Shown in pieces: positions 10,891 through 40,321 of a DNA stretch of 64,000 nt (the stretch's first letter is position 1; every line of letters begins with the position of its first letter). The position numbers were made by a program, and so were the translations under genes. The notes below the pieces were generated by a model, which was not told the DNA's origin, did no database searches, and worked only from the letters and a program-made list of their open reading frames with translations. This DNA is from Deltaproteobacteria bacterium (GTDB lineage: Bacteria; Myxococcota; B64-G9): NCBI GenBank assembly GCA_030622135.1, contig JAUXGL010000001.1:601-64600 (forward strand), written 5' to 3'.

Positions 10891-11252
10891 GGCGTTTGCC
10901 TCCCGGCCTGGTGGCGCGCCCGGTGGCGTGGGCACAGAGGCTCGGCCAGGTCGACGAGCTTTTCATCCAGGGCTCCGGGCAGGCCATCGGTGAAAACCGG
11001 CTGGCCGCAGACCCGGCAGCGGATCAGCTTGAGGGTGACCACCTCGTCCCAGCGGTTTTCCAGCAGGTGCTGAAACTCCACGGCGCCCTGGGGGCAGATT
11101 CTCCAGCAGGTCAGGCAGCGTGCGCAGCGAGCCATGTTGTGAAGCAGCGCGCGGCTTTCTCCCTCGTCGCGGAAATCCAGTGCCCGGGCGGGGCAGTTCT
11201 GCACGCAGGCCAGGCAGCCGTTGCACTTTTCGTTGACCTGGAAGTAGCTCAT
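10887..11252 (-). CDS. 4Fe-4S ferredoxin-domain protein
   Basis: ORF-track ORF 10887..11546 starts with low-complexity junk; preferred start ATG 11252 (MSYFQVNEKCNGCLACVQNCP...CARCLTCWRICP = two CxxCxxCxxxCP motifs). Start overlaps IclR stop (ATGA). Confidence 0.6.
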   Translation of the reverse strand: MSYFQVNEKCNGCLACVQNCPARALDFRDEGESRALLHNMARCARCLTCWRICPQGAVEFQHLLENRWDEVVTLKLIRCRVCGQPVFTDGLPGALDEKLVDLAEPLCPRHRARHQAGRQTP

Positions 11253-14386: not shown

Positions 14387-14884
14387 ATGGCACAAAAGAT
14401 CCTGAAGATCGAGCACGAAAAATGCACCGGCTGCCGGCTCTGCGAGCTGGTATGTGCCGTGTGGCACCACCACGTCTCCAATCCCGCCCGGAGCCGGATC
14501 CGCATCGTCAAGTGGGAGTCCGAGGGAGTCTACGTTCCCATGGCCTGCCAGCAGTGCGAGGACGCCCCCTGCGCGGCCGCCTGTCCGGCCAAGGCGCTTT
14601 CACGCAACCAGGAGACGGGCCGCGTGGAGCTGGATTACGACAAGTGTATCGGCTGCCGCACCTGTGTCTCCGTCTGTCCCTTCGGCGCCATGCACTTCGT
14701 CCCCATCGACCGCAAGGTTATAAAATGCGACCTGTGCGACGGCGATCCCCAGTGCGTGCGCTTCTGCGAGGTCAAGGCCATCGAATTCGTCGACGAAGGC
14801 GATCTGGGTCGGCACAAGGGCCGCGAGGCCGCCCGGCGCATCCACTCAGCCGACAAGAAGGCCGCCGAATTGCAATCGGGATGA
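14387..14884 (+). CDS. Poly-ferredoxin-like 4Fe-4S protein (AOR electron-transfer partner)
   Basis: Preferred ATG 14387 (MAQKILKIEHEKCTGCRLCELVC...) with GAGGAG RBS 7 nt upstream; four CxxCxxCxxxCP-type motifs; stop overlaps next gene start (ATGA). Confidence 0.8.
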   Translation: MAQKILKIEHEKCTGCRLCELVCAVWHHHVSNPARSRIRIVKWESEGVYVPMACQQCEDAPCAAACPAKALSRNQETGRVELDYDKCIGCRTCVSVCPFGAMHFVPIDRKVIKCDLCDGDPQCVRFCEVKAIEFVDEGDLGRHKGREAARRIHSADKKAAELQSG

Positions 14885-19533: not shown

Positions 19534-19547
19534 GGTGTATATTTGAC

Positions 19548-19571
19548 TATCAAGCGGTCAAATTGTCAAAA
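19548..19571. promoter_or_regulatory. Operator-like motif TTGAC-N9-GTCAAATTGT (copy 1)
   Basis: TTGACtatcaagcgGTCAAATTGT read directly; second near-identical unit at 19711-19734. Confidence 0.4.
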
Positions 19572-19710
19572 TGAAAATCGGGTCCGCCGGAATCGCTCTT
19601 CTGTACTGCTGACCCCGAAAATCTTCGCGGCCCGCAAAGATTTTCTGAGTACTGCGCGGGTCATTAGGTTGCGGCGGAGCCGCGCTGTGTAATTTCTTCA
19701 AGGTAGATGC

Positions 19711-19734
19711 TTGACCGCGTGATGGTCAAATTGT
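19711..19734. promoter_or_regulatory. Operator-like motif TTGAC-N9-GTCAAATTGT (copy 2), ~110 bp upstream of thiolase operon
   Basis: TTGACcgcgtgatgGTCAAATTGT; same inverted-repeat arms and 3' extension as copy 1. Confidence 0.4.
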
Positions 19735-19842
19735 TATGAGATTCCTTTCTGCGCGGTTTCGCTTGACACCCCACGGGGCCATAGTCTATTTCTCGAACGC
19801 TTATCCTTATTTTTTCCTGCCTTTTTGAAAAGGAGATGGGAG

Positions 19843-21051
19843 ATGCAGTTCCAAGACGCCTTTATTCCCTACGGTTGTTACTGGTCCACGCCGTTTTCCA
19901 AGTGGCAGATGAGTTTCCAGACTCTCCAGCCGATTCCGTTTGCCGCCGAGATTGCCAAGCGCGCGCTCGAGGAGCGCAGCGTTCCGCTGGATGTCTTCGA
20001 CGGCGCGTGCCTGGGCCTGACCATCCCCTCCCATAGCTGTTTCTACGGGGGGCCCTGGCTGACCGGCCTGATCGGTCTGAAGGACGTTCCCGCGCCCATG
20101 TTGTCGCAGGCTTGTGCCACCGGCGTGCGTTGCATCGCCTACGCGGCCCAGGAAGTGACGAGCAAGAGCGCGGGCGTCTTTTTGGCGGTCACCGCCGACA
20201 AGTGCTCGAACGGACCCCACTTGGTCTACCCAAACCCGGAGGGCCAGGGCGGGACCCTGGACGCGGAGGACTGGGTGCTGGACAACTTCGGATTCGATCC
20301 CATCGGGCGCAAGGCCATGATCCAGACCGCCGAGAACGTGGCCAAGGAGCACGGCATCGAGCGCTCCATCCAGGACGAGGTGGCCCTGATGCGCTACGAG
20401 CAGTACAAAAACGCGCTCAAGGACGACCGGGCTTTCCAGAAGCGCTACATGATCCAGCCGATCGAGGTGAAGGACCAGCGGGGCCGCAAGGTCCTGGCCA
20501 CGCTGAGCACCGACGAGGGGATCTTCCCCACCACCACCGCGGGCTTGGCCAAGCTGAGGCCGGTGGTGGAAGGCGGCACGGTCACTTTCGGGACGCAGAC
20601 CTTCCCGGCCGACGGCAACGCCGGCCTGGTGGTCGCAACCCGGGAGAAGGCCAAGCAGCTCTCGAGGGATCCCAAGGTGGAGATCCAGGTGGTGGCCCAC
20701 GCCCAGGCCCGGGTGAAGCCGGCCTTCATGCCCATGGCCAACGGACCGGCGGTGAAACTGGTGCTGGAGCGCGCCGGTATCGGCGTCGGGGACATCAAGG
20801 CCATGACCTCCCACACCCCCTTTGCCGTCAACGACATCTTTTTATCCAAGGAGTACGGCATCGACCTCAAAGACATGAACCGTTACGGTTGCTCGCTGAT
20901 CTGGGGTCATCCGCAGGGCCCCACCGGCATGCGCGGGATCATCGAGCTGATCGAGGAGCTTACCATCCTGGGCGGCGGCTGGGGCCTGTTTACCGGCTGC
21001 GCCGCCGGGGATAGCTCCGCCGCCATGGTCATAAAGGTTGACGTGAGCTAG
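19843..21051 (+). CDS. Thiolase-family acetyl-CoA C-acyltransferase
   Basis: Preferred ATG 19843 (AAGGAG RBS 7 nt upstream; ORF track used an in-frame upstream TTG). Thiolase N and C domains; glycine-rich C-terminal motif GHPQGPTGMRG. Confidence 0.8.
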   Translation: MQFQDAFIPYGCYWSTPFSKWQMSFQTLQPIPFAAEIAKRALEERSVPLDVFDGACLGLTIPSHSCFYGGPWLTGLIGLKDVPAPMLSQACATGVRCIAYAAQEVTSKSAGVFLAVTADKCSNGPHLVYPNPEGQGGTLDAEDWVLDNFGFDPIGRKAMIQTAENVAKEHGIERSIQDEVALMRYEQYKNALKDDRAFQKRYMIQPIEVKDQRGRKVLATLSTDEGIFPTTTAGLAKLRPVVEGGTVTFGTQTFPADGNAGLVVATREKAKQLSRDPKVEIQVVAHAQARVKPAFMPMANGPAVKLVLERAGIGVGDIKAMTSHTPFAVNDIFLSKEYGIDLKDMNRYGCSLIWGHPQGPTGMRGIIELIEELTILGGGWGLFTGCAAGDSSAAMVIKVDVS

Positions 21052-21114
21052 TGCCCGTCTTAAAACTCCACTTTTCGAGGACGGCGTCGCGCCACACTTC
21101 TTAGGGAGCCCGAC

Positions 21115-21864
21115 ATGGATATCGGATTGAAAAATAAGGTGGTCTTGGTAACCGGCGGGAGCCGGGGGATTGGCGCCTCCATCTCACTGGAACTGGGTCG
21201 GCTGGGTGCCGACGTGGCCATGACCTGCCGCAGTCGGGTGGACGACGCCAACAAGGTCGCGGACAAGATCAAGGAAATGGGCAGCCGCGCCATGGTGATC
21301 CAGACGGACGCGTCCGTGTTCGTCGAGGCCGAGAAGACCGTAGACAGCGTATTGGCTGAGTTCGGGGATCTGCATGCCCTGGTGTGCAATGCCGGGGTCA
21401 CCTGGGACGGGGTGATCTGGAAGATGTCCGAGAAGCAGTGGGACACGGTGATCGACACGAACTTGAAGGGCTACTTCACTTACAACCGGGCGGCGGCCAA
21501 GATCTTCAAGGAGAAGAAGTACGGCAAGATCGTCAATCTCTCCTCCATAAACGGCCTGCGCGGCAAGTTCGCCCAGACCAACTACTCGGCTTCCAAGGGT
21601 GGGATCATCGCCATGAGCAAGGCCCTGGCCAAGGAGCTGGGCCGGTTCAACGTCAACGTAAACGTGGTGGCTCCCGGAATGGTCAAGACCGAGATGGCCG
21701 CGAACATACCGCCGGAGTTTTTAAACATCGCGGTGAATGAGACGGTGCTGGGAAGAATCGCCGAGTCGGCGGAGGTTGCCTGGGTGGTGGCTTTTCTTTG
21801 TTCGGATATGTCTCGGCACGTCACCGGCGAGGTCGTCAAAGTCGACGGCGGCCAGTACATCTGA
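21115..21864 (+). CDS. SDR-family oxidoreductase (FabG-like 3-oxoacyl/3-hydroxyacyl reductase)
   Basis: TGGSRGIG Rossmann motif, NAG, YSASKGG catalytic Tyr-x3-Lys. Confidence 0.85.
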   Translation: MDIGLKNKVVLVTGGSRGIGASISLELGRLGADVAMTCRSRVDDANKVADKIKEMGSRAMVIQTDASVFVEAEKTVDSVLAEFGDLHALVCNAGVTWDGVIWKMSEKQWDTVIDTNLKGYFTYNRAAAKIFKEKKYGKIVNLSSINGLRGKFAQTNYSASKGGIIAMSKALAKELGRFNVNVNVVAPGMVKTEMAANIPPEFLNIAVNETVLGRIAESAEVAWVVAFLCSDMSRHVTGEVVKVDGGQYI

Positions 21865-21878
21865 GAAGGGGACGCAAG

Positions 21879-23036
21879 ATGTCACGAATCGGAATCATTG
21901 GAATCGGGCATGGGAAGTTCGGGAGGCGCAGCGATGCCTCGGTGCAGGAGTTGGCCTTCGAGTCGTTTGCCGAGGCGCTTTCTGATGCGAAGATAGAGCG
22001 TAAGGACATCGATGCCACGGTGATCGGGGCGGTGCCGGAGTATCACAAGCAGCGGTCGCTGGCGGGGGCCATCCAGGAGTACCTGGAGATGACCCCCAAG
22101 CCCACCTGGCTGACCGAGGTGGCCTGTGCCTCGGGGTCGGCGGCCATCCGCACCGCTTGGATGGGGATCAAGTCGGGCCTGCACAAGGTGGTGTCGGTGA
22201 TAGGCTGCCAGAAGATGACCGAGCTGCAAACCCCGGAGATCCTGGCGCTCATGGGCCGGGTGGGTGAGGTGCAGTGGGAGTCGATTTTCGGTACCACCTT
22301 CCCGGGCTACTACGCCATGTTCGCCAACCGGCACATGCACGAGTTCGGCACCACCAAGGAGATGCTGGCCGCGGTGGCGGTGAAAAATCACTTCTACGGG
22401 GCCATGAACAAAAAGGCCATGTTCCAGAAGGAAGTGACCCTGGAAAAGTGCCTGGCCTCCGATCCGGTGGCCTCGCCCTTCGGGATCTTCGACTGCTGCG
22501 CCAACGCCGACGGGGCCGCCGCGGTCATCCTGGCCGAGGAGGAACGGGCCCGAGCCATTGCCGGGGACCGGGTCGTTTGGCTGGATGGGTTGGGCTGTGC
22601 CACCACCACCATGTCGGTTCTGCGCCGCCCCAGCCTTACGGGGATTTCCTCGGCCACCGAGGCGTCGAAGCAGGCCTACGAGATGGCCGGGGTGGGGCCC
22701 GCTGACATCAAGGTGGCCGACGTGCACGACTGCTTCACCATCGCCGAGATCATGGCCTACGAAGACCTGGGTTTTTGCAAGAAGGGACAGGGCGGCCACT
22801 TCATCGCCGAAAAGCAGTCCTACCTCGGTGGCCGGACGCCGGTGAACGTGGACGGGGGCCTGAAGTCCAAGGGACATCCCATCGGCACCACCGGCGTTTC
22901 CATGACCGTGGAGGTCGTAAAGCAACTGCGCGGCGACTGCGGGGAGCGTCAGGTCAAGGATGCCGACGTGGCGCTTACCCACAACGTCGGCGGGATCGGG
23001 CAGTACTGTTTCGTTCACATCTACAAAAAGGAGTAG
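21879..23036 (+). CDS. SCP-x/non-condensing thiolase-like protein (DUF35 partner type)
   Basis: Preferred ATG 21879 (MSRIGIIGIGHGKFGRRSD...), 15 nt after SDR stop; thiolase fold with the catalytic Cys region (CASGSAAIR), typical of SCP2-type thiolases paired with DUF35 proteins. Confidence 0.8.
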   Translation: MSRIGIIGIGHGKFGRRSDASVQELAFESFAEALSDAKIERKDIDATVIGAVPEYHKQRSLAGAIQEYLEMTPKPTWLTEVACASGSAAIRTAWMGIKSGLHKVVSVIGCQKMTELQTPEILALMGRVGEVQWESIFGTTFPGYYAMFANRHMHEFGTTKEMLAAVAVKNHFYGAMNKKAMFQKEVTLEKCLASDPVASPFGIFDCCANADGAAAVILAEEERARAIAGDRVVWLDGLGCATTTMSVLRRPSLTGISSATEASKQAYEMAGVGPADIKVADVHDCFTIAEIMAYEDLGFCKKGQGGHFIAEKQSYLGGRTPVNVDGGLKSKGHPIGTTGVSMTVEVVKQLRGDCGERQVKDADVALTHNVGGIGQYCFVHIYKKE

Positions 23037-23040
23037 GGCC

Positions 23041-23505
23041 GTGTTCGAGTGGTTTGGAAAGATCAATTTCACTCCCCATACCCGGGTGACCGAGTTTGCC
23101 GATCACCTCAAGGACGGTTACCTGATGGGCTCGAAGTGCCGGAAATGCGGCTTCGAGACTTATCCCCCGCGGGCCGACTGTCCCAAGTGCCTCAGCCCCG
23201 ACTTCGAGTTTAATGAAATCAGCGGCCAGGGCACCTTGCTAACCCACACGCAGATCACCGCCGCTCCTACCGGGTTCCAGGACATCGGTACCTACCGGGT
23301 AGGGCTTTTGGATCTGAAGGAGGGCGGCCGGCTGCTGGCCTGGATCGGCGAGAGCATCGGGGAGGACGAGGTGAAGATCGGCATGCAGCTCCAGGTGGTT
23401 CCGCGGATCTTCGAGGACACCCCGGACATCAAGGTTTATTACACCCTGGAGAAACCCGGGACGACCTGGAATAAGGCACCCAAGCCCGGCGCTGCAACCC
23501 CGTAG
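23041..23505 (+). CDS. DUF35 OB-fold/Zn-ribbon protein (BbsA/ChsH2-C-like thiolase partner)
   Basis: GTG 23041 with GGAG 7 nt upstream, 4 nt after thiolase stop; Zn ribbon CRKCG...CPKC followed by an OB-fold region. Confidence 0.7.
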   Translation: MFEWFGKINFTPHTRVTEFADHLKDGYLMGSKCRKCGFETYPPRADCPKCLSPDFEFNEISGQGTLLTHTQITAAPTGFQDIGTYRVGLLDLKEGGRLLAWIGESIGEDEVKIGMQLQVVPRIFEDTPDIKVYYTLEKPGTTWNKAPKPGAATP

Positions 23506-23581
23506 GGGCCGCTGAGTAGCACAGTTGGTTGAACCGGTTTTAAATTCCGTGCACCCAAGCAGGGTTAGCTGAGGTGAAGCC

Positions 23582-24340
23582 ATGACCATCGAAATGGAGA
23601 AAAAGAACGACGTCGCCTACATCACCCTGAGTTCCCCGCCGGTGAACATCATGACCGGCGAGACGATGAACGCCATTACCCAGGCGCTCTTGGAGATCGC
23701 CGGGGACCAGTCCCTAAAGGCAGTGGCTTTCAAGGCCGAGGGCAAGGCCTTCTCGGCCGGCGCCGACGTAAAAGAGCACCACCCGGACAAGGCCGCGGGG
23801 ATGATCGGCGCCTTCTCCCGGATGTTCACCGCCCTGGGTAACTGCGAGCTGCCGGTGGTCATGGCCGTTGGGGGCGCCGCCCTGGGCGCCGGCTTCGAGC
23901 TGGTCATGCTGGCGGATGTGCTCATCGCCAGTGACAGCGCCACCTTCGGTCAGCCGGAGATTCGCCTGGCCTTCTTCGCGCCCCTGGGGGTGGCTTACCT
24001 GCCCAAGTTGGTGGGCCCCAACCGGGCCATGGAGATCACCTGCTCGGGCCGGACGTACTCGGCGGAGAAGATGTACGAGTACGGCCTGGTTACCCGGGTG
24101 GTCAAGCCCGAGGAGATCGAGTCGGTCATGGAGGCTTACCTGGACGATATCCGCAAGGCCTCGCCCGCGGTCATACGCCTGAATACGCGGGTGCTGAAGA
24201 AAGTGCGCGATATGCCCTACGAGGAGGCCCACCAGCAGGCCGAAAAGACATTCCTGGAGGAGCTGATGAACCTCGATGATGTTCTCGAAGGGGTCAACTC
24301 TTTTTACGAGAAACGCAAGCCGGACTGGAAAAACAAGTAG
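23582..24340 (+). CDS. Enoyl-CoA hydratase/isomerase (crotonase) family protein
   Basis: 252 aa; crotonase-fold oxyanion-hole motifs (FSAGADV, AVGGAALGAGFELV). Confidence 0.85.
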   Translation: MTIEMEKKNDVAYITLSSPPVNIMTGETMNAITQALLEIAGDQSLKAVAFKAEGKAFSAGADVKEHHPDKAAGMIGAFSRMFTALGNCELPVVMAVGGAALGAGFELVMLADVLIASDSATFGQPEIRLAFFAPLGVAYLPKLVGPNRAMEITCSGRTYSAEKMYEYGLVTRVVKPEEIESVMEAYLDDIRKASPAVIRLNTRVLKKVRDMPYEEAHQQAEKTFLEELMNLDDVLEGVNSFYEKRKPDWKNK

Positions 24341-24349
24341 GGGGCGTCA

Positions 24350-25294
24350 ATGCGAATACTGGTGGTTGGTGCCGGAGCACTCGGGGGGTTGGTGGGCGCG
24401 CAGTTGACCGAAGCGGGGGAGGACGTCCTGCTCCTGGAGATCGATGAGAAGCGCGCGGACTTGCTCAACCGGGAAGGCCTCTACATAACCGAGGAAGGCA
24501 AGGGCGAGCGGAAGATCTCCGTGAGAGTCATCACCACCATGGAGGGAATCGATCCGGTCGATCTGGTCTTCGTCTCGGTGAAGACCTACCAGACCGAGGT
24601 GGCCGTCAAAGGGGTTCTGCCGGTGATTGGGGACGACACCCGGGTGTTGTCCATGCAGAACGGCATCGGCAACACCGACGTGATGGTCGGGATTCTGGGC
24701 AGGGAAAAGGTGCTCTCGGGAATAACCTACCACAGCATCCAGCACACCGGCCCCAACAAGCTGCGCTACCGGGTGGGGATCAAGCCCATCCAGATCGCTT
24801 CGTGTGAGGGCAAGTCCGGCCCCGATGTGGAGAAGATCGGCGAGGTGTTTCGCAAGGCCGGTCTGAAAACCGACGTGGTCCGCAACATCGATCACGTGAT
24901 CTGGCAGAAGCTGTTGCATAACGCCGTGGTCAACCCGGTGTCGGCCCTCACCGGCCAAAACTGCAATCAGCTGCTCGAAGACCAGGATCTCCAGGCGCTC
25001 ATGCGCGAAGTCTGCATGGAGATAATCGCGGTCATGCGGGCCCGTGGCGTGCCCATCATCAATAAAGATGACCCCTACGCGCCGGTGATCGACTCGCAAA
25101 AGGCCCTGGGAGAGAACCGGCCCTCCATGTGGCAGGATCTGGACCGGGGGCTGAAGACCGAAGTGGACGCCCTAAACGGCGCCATCGTGGCGGAGGCCGA
25201 GCGCCACGGGCTCAAGGCCCCGCTGAACTGGATGCTGGTTCGCCTGGTGCACTCGGCCGAGCGCCGGAACCAGAACAAGGAGAGTGGAGAATGA
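24350..25294 (+). CDS. Ketopantoate-reductase (PanE/ApbA) family NAD(P)-dependent oxidoreductase
   Basis: N-terminal MRILVVGAGALGG Rossmann; ApbA N and C domains. Confidence 0.75.
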   Translation: MRILVVGAGALGGLVGAQLTEAGEDVLLLEIDEKRADLLNREGLYITEEGKGERKISVRVITTMEGIDPVDLVFVSVKTYQTEVAVKGVLPVIGDDTRVLSMQNGIGNTDVMVGILGREKVLSGITYHSIQHTGPNKLRYRVGIKPIQIASCEGKSGPDVEKIGEVFRKAGLKTDVVRNIDHVIWQKLLHNAVVNPVSALTGQNCNQLLEDQDLQALMREVCMEIIAVMRARGVPIINKDDPYAPVIDSQKALGENRPSMWQDLDRGLKTEVDALNGAIVAEAERHGLKAPLNWMLVRLVHSAERRNQNKESGE

Positions 25295-26352
25295 CGACGA
25301 TAACCGGTTGGATGATGAAGGAGCCCCAAAAGCCGTTCGAAAAGGAATCCTTCGAGGCCCCCGTTCTAAAGGAGGGCGAGGTTTTGGTGGAGGTGGCCGG
25401 CTGCGGGGTCTGCCACACCGATATCTCGTTTTCTTACCTGGGCGTCAAGACCCGCAAGGAGCCGCCGCTGGTCCTGGGTCACGAGATCTCCGGCAAGGTT
25501 GTGGAGATCGCGGGCGGCGCGGACGCGTCCTTGCAGGGCAAGAACGTCCTGGTTCCCGCGGTGCTGCCCTGCGGCGTCTGCTCCATGTGCAGAAACGACC
25601 GCCGGCGGATCTGCACGGCGCAGATCATGCCCGGCAACGATTGCCACGGTGGCTTCGCCACCCACGTGGTTGTCCCGGCCAAGTTTATCTGCCCGATTCC
25701 CGACGAGGTTCTCAAGAGCCACGAGCTCTGGGAGCTGTCCATCGTCTCCGATGCCGTGACCACTCCCTTCCAGGCGGTCAAGTGCTCCCGGTTGAACGCG
25801 GGCGATCTGGCCATTTGCATCGGCGTGGGCGGGATCGGCGTCCACGGCGTCCAGGTAGCCAAGGGCGCCGGCGCCAAGGTCATTGCCCTGGACGTCGACG
25901 ACCAAAAGCTGGAGGTGGCCCGGCAGGCCGGAGCGGATGAAGTCATCAACATAAAGGGGCTGTCCGGCAAGGAGATCAAGGGCAAGGTGAAGGCGGTCGG
26001 AAAGAGCCTGGGCGCGCCCAAGGCGTTGTGGAAGATCTTCGAGACCTCCGGCACCCGGTCGGGGCAGCAGACCGCCTTCGGCCTGATGGGCTTTGGCGCC
26101 ACCCTGGCCATCGTCGGGTTCACCATGGACAAGGTGGAGGTTCGGCTCTCCAACCTGATGGCCTTCGACGCCGAGATGTTCGGCATCTGGGGCTGCGACC
26201 CGGTACTCTACCCCGAGTGCCTCGACTGGCTGGCCAAGGGCAAGATCCAGGTCAAGCCCTACGTGGAGAAGCACTCCCTCGACGAGATCAACGAAGTCTT
26301 CGAAGCCGCCCACCACGGTAAGCTGCAAAGACGCGCCGTGCTGGTCCCGTAG
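25291..26352 (+). CDS. Zn-dependent alcohol dehydrogenase (MDR family)
   Basis: Preferred ATG 25291 overlapping upstream stop (ATGA); GHEISG, catalytic Zn Cys (CGVCHTD), structural Zn CxxCxxC, GVGGIG NAD motif. Confidence 0.85.
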   Translation: MTTITGWMMKEPQKPFEKESFEAPVLKEGEVLVEVAGCGVCHTDISFSYLGVKTRKEPPLVLGHEISGKVVEIAGGADASLQGKNVLVPAVLPCGVCSMCRNDRRRICTAQIMPGNDCHGGFATHVVVPAKFICPIPDEVLKSHELWELSIVSDAVTTPFQAVKCSRLNAGDLAICIGVGGIGVHGVQVAKGAGAKVIALDVDDQKLEVARQAGADEVINIKGLSGKEIKGKVKAVGKSLGAPKALWKIFETSGTRSGQQTAFGLMGFGATLAIVGFTMDKVEVRLSNLMAFDAEMFGIWGCDPVLYPECLDWLAKGKIQVKPYVEKHSLDEINEVFEAAHHGKLQRRAVLVP

Positions 26353-26528
26353 GCGTCTGCGGCCATGCCAGGTTTCTTTTTCGAGCGGCAGTGGTTCTGA
26401 CCCATCCCCTCCAATCAAGCCTTTAAAATAATGAGACAAGCCCGGGCCCGACCGGGTCCTCCATGCGGGCACTTCACACGGCTCCGGCCGTGCAAGTACT
26501 CGTTGTTGAGAGGAAAGGAGGGACTTCA

Positions 26529-28088: not shown

Positions 28089-30116
28089 TTATTTGTGAAT
28101 GAACGGGGCGGGGGAACGGGGGCCTTTGGTTAGGAAGTTTTGGATGCCGATCTTGGTGTCCTCGGTTTTTACGCATTCTCCGAACATTTCGGATTCGAAG
28201 TGGAGACCCTCCTCCAGGGGCTTGCGGCAGCCTTCGATTATGGTGCGGCAAAGAATTCGGTCGATGGCTTGGCTCAGGTGGCCCAGCTCCAGGTTGGGGA
28301 GCTTGTCGGGGGTTTCGATTGGGTCCTTGGATATGCCTTTGAGCTCGACCTGGCCTGAGGCGGCTTTGCCGGCGAGCTCGATGGCGTAGTCGATCAGCTT
28401 GTCGCCGTCCACCTCCTCGGAAAAGAGGCCCAGCTTGACGCCTTGCTCGGAGGAGATGGGCTTGCCGGTGCGGAGCAGCTCCTGGGCTTTCTGAAGGCCG
28501 ATCCAGCGGGGAAGGCGCTGGGTGCCGCCTGCGCCGGGGATTATGCCCAGGTTTACCTCGGGCTGACCGGCGGCCATTTTCATGCCTTTCTTGACCAGGA
28601 TGGTGGAGCAGCACATGGCCAGCTCGATGCCGCCGCCCAAAGCCAGGCCGTTCAGCGCGGCGATTACCGGCTTGCCCAGGTTTTCAACGGCCAGGCCGGC
28701 TTCCTTGGAACGTTCGCCGCTGTCGATGCCCTCCTGGGGGGTCTTGATCCCGGCCAGGAAGTTGATGTCGGCGCCGGAGACGAAGGCTTTGGTGCCGTAG
28801 CCGGAGAGGACCACCGCCTCGATCTTGGAGTCGTTCTTGATCTCGGAGAAGACTTGCTTCAACTGGGCAAAGACTTCGGGGTTGAGGGCGTTTAGTACTT
28901 TCGGGCGGCGGATGCGCACCCAGGCGACGTCGCCCACATCGTGGCGGCGGACGTGCATGATCTCGAAGGGCTGGTCGGCGGCGGCCTGCTTCTTTATGCA
29001 TTCGGGGACCGGGAAGCTGTCGTGGGTCTTGCTATAATCCTCGACCAGCTTGAGGGATTCTTTCGCCCCGAGCTTGTTCATGAGCCGGAAGGGTGGCTGG
29101 ATGTCCAACGCGATCTCCAGGGCCATCTCCAGGTCGGCTACGCTTACGATCCCCGAGTCGATGATCATCCCGGCCAGGCCGAAGTAGGCGCCCAGCAGCG
29201 TATCGGCGATCCTCTTCTCCTGGTCCGCTTGAAGCTCGACTTTTTCGCCGCGGCCGGCCACCTCCCACGGCTTTCCGGACGCAACCGCGTCCTTGAGCAG
29301 TTGGGGGGAGCGGAACCAGGGGATGTTGTAGCGTTGGCCCTCCATCTCGAGCCCGTGGTCGGTCAGCGGGTTGCCGCCGGTTAGGTTCATGGCGGTGAAG
29401 GAGCCGACGGCCAGGCCCAGCGTGCGGGTTCCCACCGCGTCGACCTCCTTGACTGTCCCCAGGCCTTCCTCTACGGCCAGAGCGTTGGCCAGAAACAGGC
29501 CCTCGAAGATGGGGTCGACGGCGTAGCCGTAGCGGCTGCCCACCCGGATGGGCACCTTGCCGATGCGCTCATACAGGCTCATCATGCTGTGGGTGAGCTT
29601 GGGGTCGGTGTCCTTGCCGGGGACTATCTCGATCATGGGGTTGCGCTCGGCCGGGAAGAAGTAGTGGGTTACCATGGTGCGGTTTTTCTTCGAGAGCGGC
29701 TCGAAGATGACCTCCGGCTCCAGGTGGGACGAGTTGGAGGTCAGAATCGCCGTTTCCGGACAGAGCTTCTCCACCTGCAAAAAGATCTTCCGCTTGAGGT
29801 TTAGATCCTCGGAGGCTGCCTCCACCACCAGGTCGGCGCCGCGGAGTTGCTCGTAGTCGCTGGTGAAGATGGTGTTCTCGATCATGGCCGCGCCCATCTC
29901 CGGCCTAAACGCCCCGGCCTTGACTCCCTTCTCCACCTTCTTCTTGAGCTTGGCCGCGCCTTTTTCAAGCGCCTCCGCCACCACGTCCACCACCACCACG
30001 TTGACGCCGTAGGGGTGGAAGACCTTGGTGAAGTGCAGGGCGATGTCCGGTCCGATCTGGCCGGAGCCGATGACGCCGATCTTCTTGATGGTAAGTCCCC
30101 GGAATTCGAAAGCCAT
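28089..30116 (-). CDS. Bifunctional 3-hydroxyacyl-CoA dehydrogenase / enoyl-CoA hydratase (HCDH N-terminal, crotonase C-terminal)
   Basis: 675 aa; N-term IGVIGSGQIGPDIA NAD-binding plus 3HCDH C domain; C-terminal crotonase fold (GGGIELAMCC). Confidence 0.85.
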   Translation of the reverse strand: MAFEFRGLTIKKIGVIGSGQIGPDIALHFTKVFHPYGVNVVVVDVVAEALEKGAAKLKKKVEKGVKAGAFRPEMGAAMIENTIFTSDYEQLRGADLVVEAASEDLNLKRKIFLQVEKLCPETAILTSNSSHLEPEVIFEPLSKKNRTMVTHYFFPAERNPMIEIVPGKDTDPKLTHSMMSLYERIGKVPIRVGSRYGYAVDPIFEGLFLANALAVEEGLGTVKEVDAVGTRTLGLAVGSFTAMNLTGGNPLTDHGLEMEGQRYNIPWFRSPQLLKDAVASGKPWEVAGRGEKVELQADQEKRIADTLLGAYFGLAGMIIDSGIVSVADLEMALEIALDIQPPFRLMNKLGAKESLKLVEDYSKTHDSFPVPECIKKQAAADQPFEIMHVRRHDVGDVAWVRIRRPKVLNALNPEVFAQLKQVFSEIKNDSKIEAVVLSGYGTKAFVSGADINFLAGIKTPQEGIDSGERSKEAGLAVENLGKPVIAALNGLALGGGIELAMCCSTILVKKGMKMAAGQPEVNLGIIPGAGGTQRLPRWIGLQKAQELLRTGKPISSEQGVKLGLFSEEVDGDKLIDYAIELAGKAASGQVELKGISKDPIETPDKLPNLELGHLSQAIDRILCRTIIEGCRKPLEEGLHFESEMFGECVKTEDTKIGIQNFLTKGPRSPAPFIHK

Positions 30117-34642: not shown

Positions 34643-35884
34643 ATGAGCGAAAAGAAACTGGAACAGAAGAAGATAGCCTCGGTGAAGACATTCAAGAAGA
34701 TCATGGCGGATCACTTCCTGCAGATCGACGCGGCCGCGAGGGATCCCGGGCGTAAGGTGGCTTGGTGTACCAGCGTGGGGCCGGCGGAGCTTTTGCAGGG
34801 GTTTGGGTTCGAGGTGTACTACCCGGAGAACCACGCGGCTATTCTTGGGTCCACCCGGACGGCCACGGACTATATACCCTACGCCAACGCCGCCGGGTAT
34901 TCCCCGGAGATCTGCTCCTACCTGACCGCCGACGTGGGTGCATACATGCAGGGCTTCACTCCGTTGACCAAGGTCTACGGGATCGAGAAGATCCCCAAGC
35001 CCGACGTGCTGGTCTACAACACCAACCAGTGCCGCGACGTCCAGGACTGGTTCATGTGGTATTCCCGCGAGTGGAAGGTTCCCTGCGTGGGTATCGAGAC
35101 CCATCGCGGCGTGGGCGCGGTAACCAAGGTGCACATCGATTCCATAGCCGGGCAGCTCCAAGACCTCGCCGGCAAGCTCGAGAAGATCGCCGGGCACCCG
35201 CTGGACATGGATCGGTTCAAGCAATCGGTGGAGCTGTCGCGCCGGTGTTCGGAGCTTTGGGACAAGGTGCTCCGCGCCGGTACGGCGGTGCCTTCCGCCA
35301 TCACTTTCTTCGACGGCACCATCCACATGGGTCCCGCGGTGGTCCTGCGCGGACTCCAGGTGGCGGTGGACTACTACCAGGAACTGTTGGTCGAGATGGA
35401 AGCGCGGGTGCAGAACAAGGTGGCCGCGGTCGCAGGGGAGAAGCACCGTCTTTACTGGGAAGGCATGCCTGTCTGGGGCAAGCTCAGAAACCTGTCCATG
35501 CAGTTTCTCGAGCTGCAGACCTGCGTGGTGGCGTCCACCTACTGCAACTCCTGGATTTTCAATCAGCTGGATCCCGACGAGCCCTTCGAGTCCATGGCCC
35601 GCGCCTACACCGAGCTGTTCATCGTCAGAAGCGATGCGGTCAAGGAGGACTACATTGCCCGGATGTGCGCGGACTACCGAGTCGACGGTTTCTTTTACCA
35701 CAACGCCCGCACCTGCCCGAACAATTCCAACTCCAGCTACGGAATGCCCCAGCGCCTGACCGAGCGGACCGGGAAGCCACACCTGGTCATCGACGGGGAT
35801 CTCAACGACCTGCGCTGTTACTCGGAGGAACAGGCCAAGACCAACATCGAGGCCTTTGTCGAGCAACTCGCCCAGGCAACATGA
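34643..35884 (+). CDS. 2-hydroxyacyl-CoA dehydratase / benzoyl-CoA-reductase-subunit family protein (HgdB/BcrB-like)
   Basis: 413 aa; family hallmarks including conserved Cys (WCTSVGP, ICSY, CNSW, CPNNSNS) and overall length and conservation pattern of HgdB/HadC/BcrB-type subunits. Confidence 0.7.
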   Translation: MSEKKLEQKKIASVKTFKKIMADHFLQIDAAARDPGRKVAWCTSVGPAELLQGFGFEVYYPENHAAILGSTRTATDYIPYANAAGYSPEICSYLTADVGAYMQGFTPLTKVYGIEKIPKPDVLVYNTNQCRDVQDWFMWYSREWKVPCVGIETHRGVGAVTKVHIDSIAGQLQDLAGKLEKIAGHPLDMDRFKQSVELSRRCSELWDKVLRAGTAVPSAITFFDGTIHMGPAVVLRGLQVAVDYYQELLVEMEARVQNKVAAVAGEKHRLYWEGMPVWGKLRNLSMQFLELQTCVVASTYCNSWIFNQLDPDEPFESMARAYTELFIVRSDAVKEDYIARMCADYRVDGFFYHNARTCPNNSNSSYGMPQRLTERTGKPHLVIDGDLNDLRCYSEEQAKTNIEAFVEQLAQAT

Positions 35885-36660
35885 AACTGTTCTGCGGCAT
35901 CGACGTTGGCTCGGCCGCCACCAAGGCCGTCCTGATCACCGGGTCTCTCGAGGTGCAGGGGCGGGGGCTGTGTCCCTCGGGAGCCGACTTCTCGGCCGCG
36001 GCCCGGCAGGTGTTCGACGCGGCCCTGGCCGGGGTCGGCGCCGGGGAGGCCGACGTAGAGGCGATCGTCTCCACCGGCTACGGCCGCACCAACGTGGATT
36101 TCGCCACCGCCAGGCGGACCGAGATCGACTGTCACGCTCGGGGTGCCTATCATCACTTCAAAAGGGCCATCACCGTAGTCGACATCGGTGGCCAGGACAA
36201 CAAGATCATCCAGCTCGATGCCGCGGGCAAGTGTCTCAAGTTCGCCATGAACCGCAAGTGCGCGGCCGGTACCGGCGCCTTTTTAGAGGAGATGGCCCTG
36301 CGGCTGAACGTCCCCATCGACAAGCTCTCGAAGATGGCCGAAAACAGCGCGGCCCCGGGTGTATCCATCGGCTCCTACTGCACGGTCTTCGCCATGACCG
36401 AGATTCTCTCCAAGGTGCGCGCGGGAGTGAAGACCGAGGACCTGGCCCGGGCGGCCCTGGTCTCGGTGGCCAAGCGCCTCCTGGAGACCCAGGCCATCGT
36501 CACGGACATCGTGGCCACCGGCGGCGTGGTGGCTCATAACCCGGTTCTGCGGGACATCCTCAAGGAGATTTTGAAGACCGAGGTTCATATCCCTCCGCAT
36601 CCCCAGCACATCGGAGCCTTCGGCGCCGCCCTGGTGGCCGCATCGGAGCAGAAGGAGTAA
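35881..36660 (+). CDS. Acyl-CoA dehydratase activase (HgdC/BcrAD/BadFG ATPase family)
   Basis: 259 aa MKLFCGIDVGSAATKAV (ASKHA phosphate-1 motif), cluster-bridging Cys pair, ATGA-coupled to upstream gene. Confidence 0.8.
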   Translation: MKLFCGIDVGSAATKAVLITGSLEVQGRGLCPSGADFSAAARQVFDAALAGVGAGEADVEAIVSTGYGRTNVDFATARRTEIDCHARGAYHHFKRAITVVDIGGQDNKIIQLDAAGKCLKFAMNRKCAAGTGAFLEEMALRLNVPIDKLSKMAENSAAPGVSIGSYCTVFAMTEILSKVRAGVKTEDLARAALVSVAKRLLETQAIVTDIVATGGVVAHNPVLRDILKEILKTEVHIPPHPQHIGAFGAALVAASEQKE

Positions 36661-36663
36661 AAG

Positions 36664-38769
36664 ATGGCAGACCTGAACAACCTCTTCCGCCCCCGGGGTA
36701 TCGCCATCATCGGCGCGTCCAATCGCCCGTTCACCATCGGCCACCGCATCATGGCAAATCTACAGACCTACGGTTTCAAGGGCCCCATCACCCCGGTCAA
36801 CCCCAAGGGTGGGGAGATCCTGGGCGTTCCGGTGGCCAGGTCCATAAAGGAAGTGCAGAACGACGTCGACCTGGCCCACGTCATCGTGCGCAACACCCTG
36901 GTGGCCCCGACCCTGCGCGACTGCGCCGAGAAGGGCGTGAAGGTGTGCATAATCAACACCTCCGGCTTCAAGGAGCTCAACCAGGAAGGCGCGAAGATGG
37001 AGCGGGAGATCGTCGAGATCGCCCGTGAGCTGGGCATTCGCCTCTTGGGCCCCAACTGCCAGGGGGTGATGAACACCGACTTGGAGGTGAACCTGTACTC
37101 CAACTTCACCTTCGCCAAGATGACCCCGGGCCACGTGTCCATGGTCTGTCAGGGTGGTGGTGTCGCCGAGGTAATCAACAACTACTTTGGCATGAACCAC
37201 ATCGGCCAGCGCATGTACGCTTCCCCGGGAAACGCCTGTGATATCTCCATCCCCGAGATCCTCGAGTTCTACGGCGACGATCCCGGGACCCACGTCATCG
37301 TCCTGCACCTGGAGAGCTTTGCCGATCCCCAGGAGTTTTTAGACAAGGTCCCCGCCATCACCGCCAAGAAACCCGTTCTGGCGCTCAAGTCCGGCACCAC
37401 CCCGGAGGGTGCCCGGGCGGTCTCCTCGCACACCGGTGGCCTGATGGAGCAGGACACCGTCACCGATGTGCTGTTCGACAAGTGCGGCGTCTTGCGTTTC
37501 GCCAATCTCGGCGAGCTTTGTGACACCGCCGCCGCCTTCGCCACCCAGCCGGTCCCCAGGGGCGACCGCGTGGGCATGGTTACCAACGCCGGTTCCCCCG
37601 CCATCATCGTCACCGATGGGGCGGTCAAGGCCGGCCTGAAGGTCCCCGACCTGAGCGAGTCCTCCAAGGAGTTTTTGCGGGAGAAGCTCTCGGCTATCGC
37701 CTCCATCGCCAACCCCATAGATATGATGGCCACCGCCGCGGAGGCCGAGTTCGGCGCCTCGCTCAAGATCCTGGTGGAAGACGCCAATCTCGATTCGGTG
37801 GTGGTTTGCTTCATGACCCCCTTCTTCGTCGACACTCTGGGCATTGCCAAGGCGGTGGAGACCTACGCGGCCCAGACCGACCGCACCCTGATTGCCGTGG
37901 CCATGACCGATCCCGGCGGAAAGGCGGAGTGGAGAGAGACGGTGGAGAAGGTCAGAAAGGCCGGCCTTCCGGTCTACTATTTCCCCGAGGACGCCGCCCG
38001 GGTGCTTTATCACATGAACCGTTTCCGCGCCCTCAGGGACCGCCCGCGCGAGGCCCCGCCCAGGCTGGCCGTGGACAAGAACGCGGCCCGGGGCCTGATC
38101 CAGGGCGCCCAGCGGAGCCCCGATGGTTTCATCTCCCCGGAGGACGCCGGCGCCATCCTGAAGGCCTACGGCATCAACATGGTCGCCGAGCACCGCGGCG
38201 GTACTTTCAACGACCTGAAGGCGGCCGCGGCCAAGATAGGCTACCCGGTGGTCCTGAAGGCCGAGGCTCCAACCCTGGTTCACAAGACCGAGTCTTTCGC
38301 GGTCATCTTAAACATCAAGGACGAGGCCGAGCTGAAAAAAGCCTTCGACGACCTCTATGCCCGCTTGAGGGGCGTCCTGGACTTGTCCTACCTGTTGCAG
38401 AACCAGCTAATCGGTGGCCTGGAGGTCATCGTCGGCGGCGCCCGGGCCTCCAAGTTAGGCTCCATGATCATGTTCGGCCTCGGCGGCGTGAACGTGGAGA
38501 TATTCAAGGACGTGGTCTTCAAGCTGGCTCCCCTCTGCCGTTCCGAGGCCGAGGAGATGCTTGCGGAGATCAGGTCGTCCACCCTGCTGGACGGCTTCCG
38601 CGGCCAGCCGGCGGTCGACCGCGGCGCCCTGGTCGAAATCCTGTTGAAAGTCTCCGTTCTGTTGCACGACCACCCCGAGATCGAGGAGCTTGACCTGAAC
38701 CCGGTCATGGCCTTTCCCGAAGGCCGCTCGTCCGTGGTGGTCGATGCGAGGATCAAACTGGGCAAATAG
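36664..38769 (+). CDS. ADP-forming acyl-CoA synthetase (NDP-forming; fused alpha/beta, CoA-binding + ATP-grasp)
   Basis: 701 aa; N-term RGIAIIGASNRP CoA-binding, catalytic His region, C-terminal ATP-grasp; starts 3 nt after activase stop. Confidence 0.8.
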   Translation: MADLNNLFRPRGIAIIGASNRPFTIGHRIMANLQTYGFKGPITPVNPKGGEILGVPVARSIKEVQNDVDLAHVIVRNTLVAPTLRDCAEKGVKVCIINTSGFKELNQEGAKMEREIVEIARELGIRLLGPNCQGVMNTDLEVNLYSNFTFAKMTPGHVSMVCQGGGVAEVINNYFGMNHIGQRMYASPGNACDISIPEILEFYGDDPGTHVIVLHLESFADPQEFLDKVPAITAKKPVLALKSGTTPEGARAVSSHTGGLMEQDTVTDVLFDKCGVLRFANLGELCDTAAAFATQPVPRGDRVGMVTNAGSPAIIVTDGAVKAGLKVPDLSESSKEFLREKLSAIASIANPIDMMATAAEAEFGASLKILVEDANLDSVVVCFMTPFFVDTLGIAKAVETYAAQTDRTLIAVAMTDPGGKAEWRETVEKVRKAGLPVYYFPEDAARVLYHMNRFRALRDRPREAPPRLAVDKNAARGLIQGAQRSPDGFISPEDAGAILKAYGINMVAEHRGGTFNDLKAAAAKIGYPVVLKAEAPTLVHKTESFAVILNIKDEAELKKAFDDLYARLRGVLDLSYLLQNQLIGGLEVIVGGARASKLGSMIMFGLGGVNVEIFKDVVFKLAPLCRSEAEEMLAEIRSSTLLDGFRGQPAVDRGALVEILLKVSVLLHDHPEIEELDLNPVMAFPEGRSSVVVDARIKLGK

Positions 38770-38776
38770 AGGTGTT

Positions 38777-40321
38777 ATGGCGAACTGGCTGAACCTGGGC
38801 GAGATGCTGAGACAAAACGCTCACAAGTACCCCGAGACGATCTGTCTCATGGACCGCGAAAGGTCTTTCACCTTTCCCCAGTCCAACCGGCGCGCCTGCC
38901 GCCTGGCCCACGGTTTAATGTCTTTAGGGTTGAAGAAGGGCGACCGGGTCTCTTGCCTTTTGGAGAACTGCATCGAGTTCGTGGAAATCTACCTGGCCTG
39001 CGCCAAGGTCGGCATCGTGGTGAACCCGATCAACTTCCGCGTTTCCCCGCGGGACGCTCTTTTCATCGCCAACCACGCCGAGGCCCAGGCCTTCATCGTC
39101 CACGACATCTTCACCGACACCGTCGACGGCATCCGCCGGGACTTGATTGTTCCCCAGGATCGCTGCGTGGTCGTGGGTAAGGAAAAAGACGGCTACATTC
39201 CCTACGAAACCCTGATCGACCCAGGCGACTCCTCCGAACCCCAGGTGGAACTGAAACCGTCGGACCCCTGGATCCTCCTCTACACCTCCGGCACCACCGG
39301 TCGCCCCAAGGGGGTGATGAGGTCTCACGAGTCTTACGTGGCGTTTTATTTAATCAACGCGATAGACTTCGATTTTCGCCCCGGCGACCGCGTACTGAAC
39401 ATGATGCCCCTGTGTCATGTCAACACAACCTTCTTTACCTTCACCTTCACTTACATCGGCGGCACGACCTACGTGGCCCCCGCCATGGGCTTCGACCCCA
39501 AGAAGATGTTGCAGATCGTCGGGGACGCCGGGATCAACTTCATATCTCTCATTCCCACCCACTACGCCCTGATTTTGGCCGTACCCGAGGAAGAGAGAGC
39601 GAAATACGACGTCTCCAGCATCAAGAAGCTCCTGTGCTCCTCGGCCCCCGCGAGGATCGAGCACAAGCATGGCATCATGAAGTACATGCAGGGCGTCCAA
39701 CTCTACGAAGGCTACGGCTCGACCGAGGCCGGCATCGTGACCACGTTGATGCCCGACGAGCAGCTGACCAAGCCCGGCTCAATCGGCAAGGAGTCTTTGG
39801 GCACCGACCGCGTAAAGATCCTCGACGAGGAAAAACAAGAGCTCCCCCGCGGCCAGATCGGCGAACTGTACTCCCGCGGCCCCATGATGTTCGACGGCTA
39901 CTACAAGGACCCCGAAAAAACCACCAAGTCATTCGCCGGCGAATGGTTCTCCGCCGGCGACATGGCCTACCAGGATGAGGACGGCTATTTCTTCTTAGTC
40001 GATCGCAAGCACAACATGATAATCACCGGCGGCGAGCACGTCTTTCCCTCCGAAGTCGAGAACGTACTCTGCCAGCACGAAACGGTCCTAGACGCCGCCG
40101 TAATCGGCGTCCCCCATGACAAATGGGGCGAATCGGTCCACGCCGTAGTGATATTAAAGGAAGGCTGCTCCTGCCGCGACCAGGATCTGATGGACTTCTG
40201 CCGCGACCGCTTAGCCGGTTTCAAGCGCCCCAAGACCGTCCAATTCATCGCCCTTGACGAAATGCCCCGCACCGCCACCGGCAAGATCCTCCACCGCATC
40301 CTGCGCGAACGCTGTTCTTAA
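38777..40321 (+). CDS. AMP-dependent acyl-CoA synthetase/ligase
   Basis: Preferred ATG 38777; AMP-binding motif LYTSGTTGRPKGV, YGSTE, C-terminal GKI lysine region. Confidence 0.85.
   Translation: MANWLNLGEMLRQNAHKYPETICLMDRERSFTFPQSNRRACRLAHGLMSLGLKKGDRVSCLLENCIEFVEIYLACAKVGIVVNPINFRVSPRDALFIANHAEAQAFIVHDIFTDTVDGIRRDLIVPQDRCVVVGKEKDGYIPYETLIDPGDSSEPQVELKPSDPWILLYTSGTTGRPKGVMRSHESYVAFYLINAIDFDFRPGDRVLNMMPLCHVNTTFFTFTFTYIGGTTYVAPAMGFDPKKMLQIVGDAGINFISLIPTHYALILAVPEEERAKYDVSSIKKLLCSSAPARIEHKHGIMKYMQGVQLYEGYGSTEAGIVTTLMPDEQLTKPGSIGKESLGTDRVKILDEEKQELPRGQIGELYSRGPMMFDGYYKDPEKTTKSFAGEWFSAGDMAYQDEDGYFFLVDRKHNMIITGGEHVFPSEVENVLCQHETVLDAAVIGVPHDKWGESVHAVVILKEGCSCRDQDLMDFCRDRLAGFKRPKTVQFIALDEMPRTATGKILHRILRERCS

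Follow-up and report, generated by a model that had tools for sequence, protein, structure and literature searches.

A conserved seven-gene operon with a Had ortholog in an uncultured Myxococcota genome, compared with anaerobic benzoyl-CoA pathways

To our knowledge, nearly everything known about the anaerobic degradation of aromatic compounds comes from a handful of cultured Proteobacteria and Desulfobacterota. A hallmark enzyme of the anaerobic benzoyl-CoA pathway is Had (6-hydroxycyclohex-1-ene-1-carbonyl-CoA dehydrogenase), found in the Dch-Had-Oah system (BamR-BamQ-BamA) of Thauera and Geobacter, while Rhodopseudomonas palustris has BadK-BadH-BadI. Here we compare these systems with a seven-gene operon (g1 to g7) encoding a thiolase, a short-chain dehydrogenase/reductase (SDR), an SCP2-type thiolase, a DUF35 protein, a crotonase, a PanE-like reductase, and a Had ortholog. 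The operon lies in a 64,000-nucleotide stretch of contig JAUXGL010000001.1 from a Deltaproteobacteria bacterium assigned to the Myxococcota (assembly GCA_030622135.1), which we call the window. The comparison extends to the 2-hydroxyacyl-CoA dehydratases (HadBC/HadI/LdhA, FldBC/FldI/FldH, and HgdAB/HgdC/HgdH), to the class I benzoyl-CoA reductase (BCR) BcrCBAD, and to the thiolases and aldolases that work with DUF35 proteins, namely the archaeal acetoacetyl-CoA thiolase/DUF35/HMG-CoA synthase complex (6ESQ/6ET9), BbsAB (7PXP), and Ltp2/ChsH2.

Judged by its genes, the operon is neither a canonical dch-had-oah cluster, nor a bbs module, nor a steroid side-chain module. With slightly more confidence than doubt, we read it as the Myxococcota-type version of a conserved, uncharacterized gene set by which ring-reduced aromatic or alicyclic acyl-CoA esters would be broken down anaerobically; we infer the substrate as well as the roles of g6, g3/g4, and an HgdA-like protein. 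This would mean that uncultured Myxococcota, Gemmatimonadaceae, and other soil and sediment lineages carry a conserved but differently built version of the pathway, with Had and, in some lineages, a class I BCR and an Hcr-like enzyme. This version also has a pair of alpha-only HgdA-like proteins, each with a dedicated activase; one of the pair has no cluster and forms a fusion with PanE.

The operon and its Had ortholog

The operon (19843-26352, forward strand) is real and conserved rather than a chance arrangement, since the same seven genes recur in the same order, at 63-79% amino-acid identity, in 3 of the loci fetched for comparison (designated L with a number): L003, from a Myxococcota metagenome-assembled genome (MAG), L083, and L086. 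Intergenic distances from g1 to g7 are 63, 14, 4, 76, 9, and -4 nt, and the GC content at third codon positions (GC3) is 0.77-0.88 for g1 to g7, compared with 0.42-0.60 for spurious open reading frames (ORFs) of the window. Searches against Pfam and NCBIfam bear out the seven same-strand ORFs, their families, and their order as given in a preliminary description of this DNA. That description had also counted two ATGA overlaps, of which only the one joining g6 and g7 (25291-25294) is found within the operon, g3 and g4 being spaced 4 nt apart; another ATGA overlap, beyond the operon, joins the gene of the HgdA-like protein to that of its activase (35881-35884).

Assignment of g7 draws on both profile and structure matches. 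It scores 457.6 on the Had equivalog model TIGR03201, 119 bits clear of the cutoff of 338.65, and matches the Had structures 7qul/7quy with an E-value of 1e-111, the next alcohol dehydrogenase following at 4e-44. In L069 (Candidatus Desulfobacillus denitrificans, whose Oah scores 605 against a cutoff of 464), a locus with a genuine dch-had-oah cluster, Had is 49% identical to g7. On these matches g7 is a true Had ortholog, so that its earlier label of Zn-dependent alcohol dehydrogenase was right as to family and can now be made more exact.

The crotonase g5, which adjoins g6 in most related loci, has both catalytic Glu residues (in GFELVM and GQPEIRL), indicating a catalytically complete enoyl-CoA hydratase. 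In g1 the Cys/His/Cys catalytic residues of a thiolase are visible, and its score on TIGR01930 is 186 (cutoff 240). The g1 subfamily is very large and spread over many bacterial and some archaeal phyla, and a homolog with 57% identity lies beside dch-had-oah in L069. We propose that g1 is a 3-oxoacyl-CoA thiolase, for example for 3-oxopimelyl-CoA, and that g2, whose best NCBIfam matches are FabG and acetoacetyl-CoA reductase, is a 3-hydroxyacyl-CoA dehydrogenase; a g2 ortholog (54%) is found directly beside a genuine Oah gene in L167.

Compared with Dch-Had-Oah, the operon thus shares Had, and g5, g2, and g1 are available for the subsequent steps; clusters related to it also contain bcrCBAD. 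It differs in that Oah is missing from operon and window, g5 is not a clear Dch ortholog, a PanE-like reductase and an SCP2-thiolase/DUF35 pair are added, and HgdA-like/activase enzymes, which are absent from the canonical pathway, are linked to the gene set. The likeness to BadK-BadH-BadI is seen in related loci of the Gemmatimonadaceae type, where a BadI/MenB-like crotonase, an SDR, and an enoyl-CoA hydratase stand in a row 5' of the g6 ortholog. The operon of the window, in contrast, has no BadI-like gene and instead has the Had of the Thauera branch.

The PanE-like reductase and the HgdA-like proteins

The product of g6 is a PanE/ApbA-family NAD(P)H ketoreductase that scores 258 on TIGR00745 (apbA_panE; cutoff 141) and displays the KPR Lys (WQKLLHN) and Glu (TEVDALNG) motifs. 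Its subfamily is narrow, with members sharing at least 58% identity and a sharp fall to at most 43% outside it. Several g6 homologs are over-long and include an HGD-D domain. In L004 (a Deltaproteobacteria MAG) and L023 (Gemmatimonadaceae), the PanE-like part makes up the first half of a ~760-aa protein whose second half resembles the 2-hydroxyacyl-CoA dehydratase alpha subunit and BcrB, and a BcrAD/HgdC-type activase gene follows. We searched all fetched loci by tblastn with 21 query proteins (from the operon, its window neighbors, and reference loci L023, L069, L083, and L084) and counted arrangements in the 30 g6-subfamily loci having sequence downstream. In 23/30, PanE and HGD-D are fused in frame, with an activase gene following. 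In 5 loci (the window, L003, L083, L085, and L086) Had lies directly 3' of g6 instead, and the remaining 2 have neither the fusion nor an adjacent Had. This context of catabolic clusters and HGD-D fusion argues against a role for g6 in pantothenate synthesis, and g6 appears to link the operon to an uncharacterized ATP-driven iron-sulfur enzyme present in several phyla. Neither the fusion nor this gene set is described in the literature searched, which is weak evidence given its incomplete coverage. The PanE fusion offers a testable handle on the huge and uncharacterized family of "2-hydroxyacyl-CoA dehydratase" homologs, and is relevant to the possible oxygen-free processing of hydroxylated or lignin-derived aromatic acids.

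The HGD-D domain fused to PanE, here called HgdA-1, has Ser, Gly, and Thr/Ala at the three presumed [4Fe-4S] Cys positions in 22/22 sequences, while its dedicated activase keeps both cluster cysteines in 18/18. Because all three cluster Cys are lost, HgdA-1 cannot be a conventional dehydratase. In the lineage of the window, HgdA-1 and its activase have been lost and PanE is retained in direct coupling to Had.

An unfused paralog of this domain, HgdA-2, is encoded 8 kb downstream of the operon together with an activase, an ADP-forming (NDP-forming) acyl-CoA synthetase, and an AMP-forming acyl-CoA ligase. In L083, whose HgdA-2 is 78% identical, the arrangement is the same and lies just 4 kb from the operon. 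The best PDB match of HgdA-2 is HadB (3o3m_A, 1.7e-46), with MbdO at 8e-29, and its scores are 210 on the HadB model NF052455 (cutoff 750) and 149 on the BcrB model TIGR02260 (cutoff 487). Six Cys are invariant in 20/20 HgdA-2 sequences, and of these Cys91, Cys130, and Cys358 are common to genuine BcrB. The activase scores 227 on TIGR00241 (cutoff 125), and its cluster ligands Cys127 and Cys167 are conserved in 18/18 sequences. Identification of HgdA-2 as a double-cubane-cluster protein was considered and rejected, with a score of 53 against a cutoff of 350 on NF040772, better matches to HadB and BcrB, and no match to such a protein in the PDB search. Only alpha-type (HadB-like) HGD-D proteins are present, HadC giving no match at E<=1e-8, and the tblastn panel revealed no hidden second HGD-D gene in the window.

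The ADP-forming synthetase is conserved behind HgdA-2 and the activase in L083, L090, L165, and L167, and the AMP-forming ligase, of the fatty/alicyclic-acid type, in L083, L100, L102, L166, and L167. Modules of HgdA-2, activase, and CoA ligase (ADP- and/or AMP-forming) are widespread as free-standing units in Deltaproteobacteria and Myxococcota MAGs. The HgdA-2 family is large, with >7,900 relatives at E<=1e-40, of which the best 120 all come from uncultured sources. The idea that the ADP-forming synthetase occurs only together with g3/g4 was also considered and discarded, as L165 and L167 carry the synthetase without that pair. The ~700 bp 5' of HgdA-2 (33900-34640) are AT-rich, apparently non-coding, and unusually long, and the 2-kb bin 34001-36000 has 56% GC compared with about 60% across most of the window; this stretch is a possible site of regulatory elements or of a small RNA.

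The HgdA-like/activase pair resembles both the 2-hydroxyacyl-CoA dehydratases and class I BCR and, by the features compared here, fits the full definition of neither. With HadBC-type systems it shares the linkage of an HGD-D protein, an activase, and an enzyme of 2-ketoacid-reductase type. The reductase, however, is of the PanE family rather than 2-Hacid_dh, CoA ligases take the place of the CoA-transferase, the HGD-D proteins are alpha-only, the PanE-fused paralog lacks a cluster, and the setting is that of benzoyl-CoA-type clusters. With BcrCBAD, HgdA-2 shares the three BcrB cysteines and the pairing with a BcrAD-family ATPase, and the string of HgdA-1, activase, HgdA-2, activase mimics the B/C plus A/D composition. 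HgdA-2 nevertheless scores far below the Bcr cutoffs, the window has a single HGD-D gene and a single ATPase gene, and genuine bcrCBAD coexists with the HgdA-like genes in Gemmatimonadaceae clusters. It is possible that the four genes encode a BCR-like heterotetramer having one catalytic cluster or, alternatively, that HgdA-1 is a CoA-ester-binding scaffold for PanE.

Gene order in these related loci reinforces the connection with aromatic compounds. Loci of the Gemmatimonadaceae type read bcrC, bcrB, bcrA, bcrD, an Hcr-like FAD subunit, a fused gamma-alpha Mo subunit, TetR, g1, a BadI/Oah/MenB-like crotonase, g2, g5, g6::HgdA-1, activase-1, HgdA-2, activase-2, ligase, Had, and a second thiolase. 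All four Bcr subunits exceed their equivalog cutoffs (503/421, 677/487, 589/578, and 350/313), and the Mo subunit falls short of the 4-hydroxybenzoyl-CoA reductase alpha model (929; cutoff 995). The bcrCBAD genes lie directly upstream of the orthologous set in L023, with similar matches in L007, L037, L094, L095, L098, and L105. A complete bcrCBAD with an Hcr-like enzyme in Gemmatimonadaceae MAGs points to a potential for anaerobic aromatic degradation in that phylum. The BadI-like crotonase of these loci reaches 182 on the BadI model (cutoff 468) and 190 on the Oah model TIGR03200 (cutoff 464). Delta-type loci (L004 and L088) have the order Hcr-like genes, g1, g5, g6::HgdA-1, activase, Had. 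In L167, orthologs of HgdA-2, the activase, and both the ADP- and AMP-forming ligases are divergent from a genuine Oah gene, whose product is 66% identical to an Oah passing TIGR03200; besides the g2 ortholog, a thiolase, a Dch-like enoyl-CoA hydratase, and a Zn-dependent alcohol dehydrogenase are found nearby. The preliminary description had proposed, from the operon, an aldehyde:ferredoxin oxidoreductase (AOR), and an HgdB-like locus, that an unusual aromatic, alicyclic, or isoprenoid substrate is degraded anaerobically. What stands of this proposal is the degradation of aromatic or alicyclic CoA esters and its tie to the HgdB-like locus, supported by Had, the HGD-D fusion, the bcrCBAD, Hcr-like, and BadI-like clusters, and the recurrence of AOR and an IclR regulator in L088.

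In the modified lower benzoyl-CoA pathway that we favor, the ligases would activate an acid to its CoA ester, and either the HgdA-like/activase enzyme or a reductase encoded outside the window would reduce or deoxygenate the ring. The dienoyl- or enoyl-CoA would then be hydrated by g5, and the 6-hydroxy group oxidized by g7. Ring opening would come next, a step for which other lineages use a BadI/Oah-like hydrolase that the window does not contain. Either g2 or a FadB-like protein encoded nearby would oxidize 3-hydroxypimelyl-CoA, and g1 and g3/g4 would convert 3-oxopimelyl-CoA to glutaryl-CoA and acetyl-CoA and later acetoacetyl-CoA to two acetyl-CoA. We expect that g6 reduces or oxidizes a carbonyl on the intermediate handled by the HgdA-like enzyme.

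Several findings weigh against this pathway. No class I or class II BCR, Oah/BamA, BadI, or glutaryl-CoA dehydrogenase is found in the 64-kb window, and the tblastn panel likewise returned no XDH-type, BadI/Oah, or Bcr genes there. The ligases are not benzoate-CoA-ligase-like, and the AOR is nearer to the AORs of Pyrococcus furiosus and Aromatoleum than to BamB. Orthology of g5 to Dch does not appear demonstrable, as g5 is Dch-like but below threshold on TIGR03189 (148; cutoff 292.5) and just 34% identical to the Dch of L069. The g1 subfamily is often paired with an SDR alone, as in ordinary acetoacetyl-CoA metabolism, and the HgdA-2 module also stands alone in unrelated contexts. The carriers of the system are all uncultured, and the support is comparative.

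A partly overlapping explanation, which we consider unlikely, is a 2-oxoacid/2-hydroxyacid route. Here g6 would reduce a 2-oxoacid (phenylpyruvate or 4-hydroxyphenylpyruvate from Phe or Tyr; 2-oxoadipate or 2-oxoglutarate) to the (R)-2-hydroxyacid, a ligase would form the CoA ester, and the HgdA-like protein and activase would dehydrate it to the enoyl-CoA by a ketyl-radical mechanism. The side chain would then be beta-oxidized by g5, g2, and g1 or g3/g4, for example from cinnamoyl-CoA to benzoyl-CoA and acetyl-CoA, with Had and the ring enzymes acting afterwards. The PanE family consists of 2-ketoacid reductases, g6 passes its model, and PDB entry 3wfi is among the g6 matches; Lactococcus PanE and Enterococcus D-mandelate dehydrogenase produce D-2-hydroxyacids. 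HgdA-2 is nearer to HadB (210 bits, 1.7e-46) than to BcrB (149 bits), the activase exceeds its cutoff on the model for acyl-CoA dehydratase activases, and every HgdA-2 module comes with CoA ligases. In related clusters, the resulting (4-hydroxy)benzoyl-CoA could pass to the Hcr-like enzyme and BcrCBAD, and the AOR upstream is of a type usual in aromatic amino-acid catabolism. This route fits poorly, however, with the loss of the cluster Cys in all 22 HgdA-1 sequences, with the lack of a beta subunit or CoA-transferase, and with a window lineage that lost HgdA-1 and its activase yet keeps g6 coupled to Had. The ligases, moreover, lack an arylpropanoate signature, and no aminotransferase is linked to the operon.

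The thiolase/DUF35 pair and its possible role in ring opening

Between g2 and g5 lie g3, an SCP2/SCPx-type thiolase, and g4, its presumed DUF35 partner. The catalytic triad of g3 is intact, with the Cys nucleophile (ACASG), the His (GHPIG), and the Cys of the HDCF motif, and g3 is judged to be a thiolase rather than a retro-aldolase because this triad is kept. It scores 486 on NF004720 (PRK06064 thiolase subfamily; cutoff 420) and 368 on the equivalog NF053570 (cutoff 600), and can be aligned over its whole length to the acetoacetyl-CoA thiolases 7yvy/6esq of archaea (1e-72 to 2e-71), BbsB (6e-53) and Ltp2 (6ok1_A, 7e-39) being more distant PDB matches. With a CxxC...CxxC zinc ribbon and an OB fold, g4 contains the domains zf-ChsH2 and OB_ChsH2_C only, and among solved structures it is nearest to 6esq_E, a DUF35 protein of archaea (1e-12), followed by ChsH2-DUF35 (3e-6) and BbsA (7e-4). 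On the BbsB model NF053628, g3 scores 202 (cutoff 750), and on the BbsA model NF053627, g4 scores 39 (cutoff 250). The pair is therefore predicted to form a catalytically complete thiolase with a scaffold partner, neither Bbs-like nor a steroid aldolase.

The archaeal complex is the closest described system for both proteins. As in that complex, the two genes are adjacent and the Cys/His/HDCF motifs are kept; the operon differs in having no HMG-CoA synthase gene (an HMGCS domain was found in none of the scanned window ORFs) and in its catabolic context. BbsAB likewise joins an SCP2-type thiolase to a zinc-ribbon/OB-fold DUF35 protein in an anaerobic aromatic-degradation setting, but BbsB has HDAF in place of HDCF, and the similarity is far below that to the archaeal pair. 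Ltp2 is an aldolase, while g3 keeps the thiolase catalytic Cys, and in ChsH2 the DUF35 domain is C-terminal to a MaoC-type hydratase, while g4 is free-standing. Among related loci, L089 is a hybrid in which a BadI-like crotonase and g3/g4 are both present, which rules out a strict mutual exclusion of the two.

A bolder proposal, improbable as a whole, combines the pieces into a new ATP-dependent ketyl-radical system with thiolytic ring opening and ATP recovery. First, aromatic or ring-reduced CoA esters would be the substrates of a system composed of the PanE-like reductase, the alpha-only HgdA-like proteins, and their activases; these could form a minimal two-component reductase of the benzoyl-CoA type, or a deoxygenase for an extra ring oxygen such as that in 3-hydroxybenzoyl-CoA or protocatechuyl-CoA. 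Second, g3/g4 is proposed to replace BadI/Oah in the lineage of the window, conserving a second thioester. If this is true, thiolytic ring opening by a thiolase/DUF35 pair would be a new and energy-saving mode of ring cleavage. Third, the adjacent ADP-forming acyl-CoA synthetase could convert the second thioester to ATP.

We consider it quite unlikely that the operon serves ordinary short- or medium-chain beta-oxidation, or acetoacetyl-CoA or butyrate metabolism, with g6 and g7 as broad-range alcohol or ketone dehydrogenases. The frequent company of the g1 subfamily with an SDR alone, including phaA/phaB-like pairs in Anaerolineae loci, would agree with this, as would the nearest characterized relatives of g3/g4, which make or cleave acetoacetyl-CoA, the FabG and acetoacetyl-CoA reductase matches of g2, and the FadB-like gene nearby. 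It leaves unexplained, however, the margin by which g7 exceeds the Had equivalog cutoff and the restriction of the g6 subfamily to clusters with Had, an HGD-D protein, and activases, often with bcrCBAD, Hcr-like, or BadI-like genes, and the operon lacks an acyl-CoA dehydrogenase or electron-transfer flavoprotein. A Bbs-like or steroid side-chain module, in which g3/g4 would thiolyze or cleave by retro-aldol reaction a branched or aromatic CoA ester, as the preliminary description had suggested by analogy with BbsAB or Ltp2/ChsH2, is highly improbable: the gene architecture, the BbsB structure match, and a real anaerobic aromatic context are in its favor, but the Bbs models are missed widely, the archaeal pair is nearer, the thiolase triad is intact, g4 carries no MaoC hydratase part, the operon and its neighbors contain neither a MaoC hydratase nor an acyl-CoA dehydrogenase nor a Bbs-type CoA-transferase, and equivalents of BbsEF, BbsG, BbsH, and BbsCD and steroid genes are absent.

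Coordinates and further features of the window

Table 1. Positions of the operon genes, their neighbors, and selected features of related loci
Feature	Position (strand)	Remarks
Upstream intergenic region	19534..19842 (+)	sigma-70-like site 19543-19572; consensus match
Candidate operator GGTCAAATTGT, two exact copies	19556-19566, 19724-19734	168 bp apart, in the 309-bp region 5' of g1
g1, classic (type II-like) thiolase	19843..21051 (+)	402 aa; Thiolase_N + Thiolase_C
g2, FabG-like SDR	21115..21864 (+)	249 aa
g3, SCP2/SCPx-type thiolase	21879..23036 (+)	385 aa
g4, free-standing DUF35 protein	23041..23505 (+)	154 aa; GTG start
g5, crotonase-fold enoyl-CoA hydratase	23582..24340 (+)	252 aa; ECH_1 domain
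g6, PanE/ApbA-family NAD(P)H ketoreductase	24350..25294 (+)	314 aa
g7, Had ortholog	25291..26352 (+)	353 aa
FadB-like 3-hydroxyacyl-CoA dehydrogenase/enoyl-CoA hydratase fusion	28089..30116 (-)	675 aa
HgdA-2, alpha-type 2-hydroxyacyl-CoA dehydratase/BcrB-like Fe-S protein	34643..35884 (+)	413 aa
Activase, BcrAD/HgdC-type ATPase	35881..36660 (+)	259 aa; ATGA overlap with HgdA-2
ADP-forming (NDP-forming) acyl-CoA synthetase	36664..38769 (+)	701 aa
AMP-forming acyl-CoA ligase	38744..40321 (+)	525 aa
HgdA-1 fusions, cluster Cys lost	L023 13805-16897; L004 11993-15093	22 loci overall
Free-standing HgdA-2 modules	L165 10001-14610; L166 10001-13634	
Thauera-type bcrCBAD + Hcr-like enzyme	L023 895-9290	[2Fe-2S] gamma fused to Mo alpha

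The repeats GGTCAAATTGT upstream of g1 have a single further match in the window, with one mismatch, at 31770, and may be the operator of a regulator encoded close by, for example an IclR protein (11249-12016). The gene of this regulator, on the reverse strand, is divergent from that of the AOR-family tungsten/molybdenum enzyme (12435-14375), downstream of which lies a poly-ferredoxin gene (~14387-14884). AOR (86%) and IclR (57%) recur 5' of the g1 ortholog in L088 (2983-6126). The AOR and ferredoxin were considered as a BamBC core of a class II BCR and rejected, the match to P. furiosus AOR being 297 bits and that to BamB (4z3w) 199.

On the other side of the operon, the FadB-like fusion is a conserved neighbor, with 65-70% identity in L003, L083, L085, and L086. 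Just 3' of g7 is a 505-aa ORF (26463-27980) with no Pfam match and a GC3 of 0.69, which is annotated as a gene in the source contig and is not found at the corresponding position in L083. Two proteins of the window are unrelated to the operon: a secreted cysteine-rich protein of 849 aa with Stig1-like repeats (31337-33886) and a 787-aa fusion of a PilZ domain to an Hsp70 (DnaK-like) protein (44415-46778). Both appear compatible with a Myxococcota-like origin.

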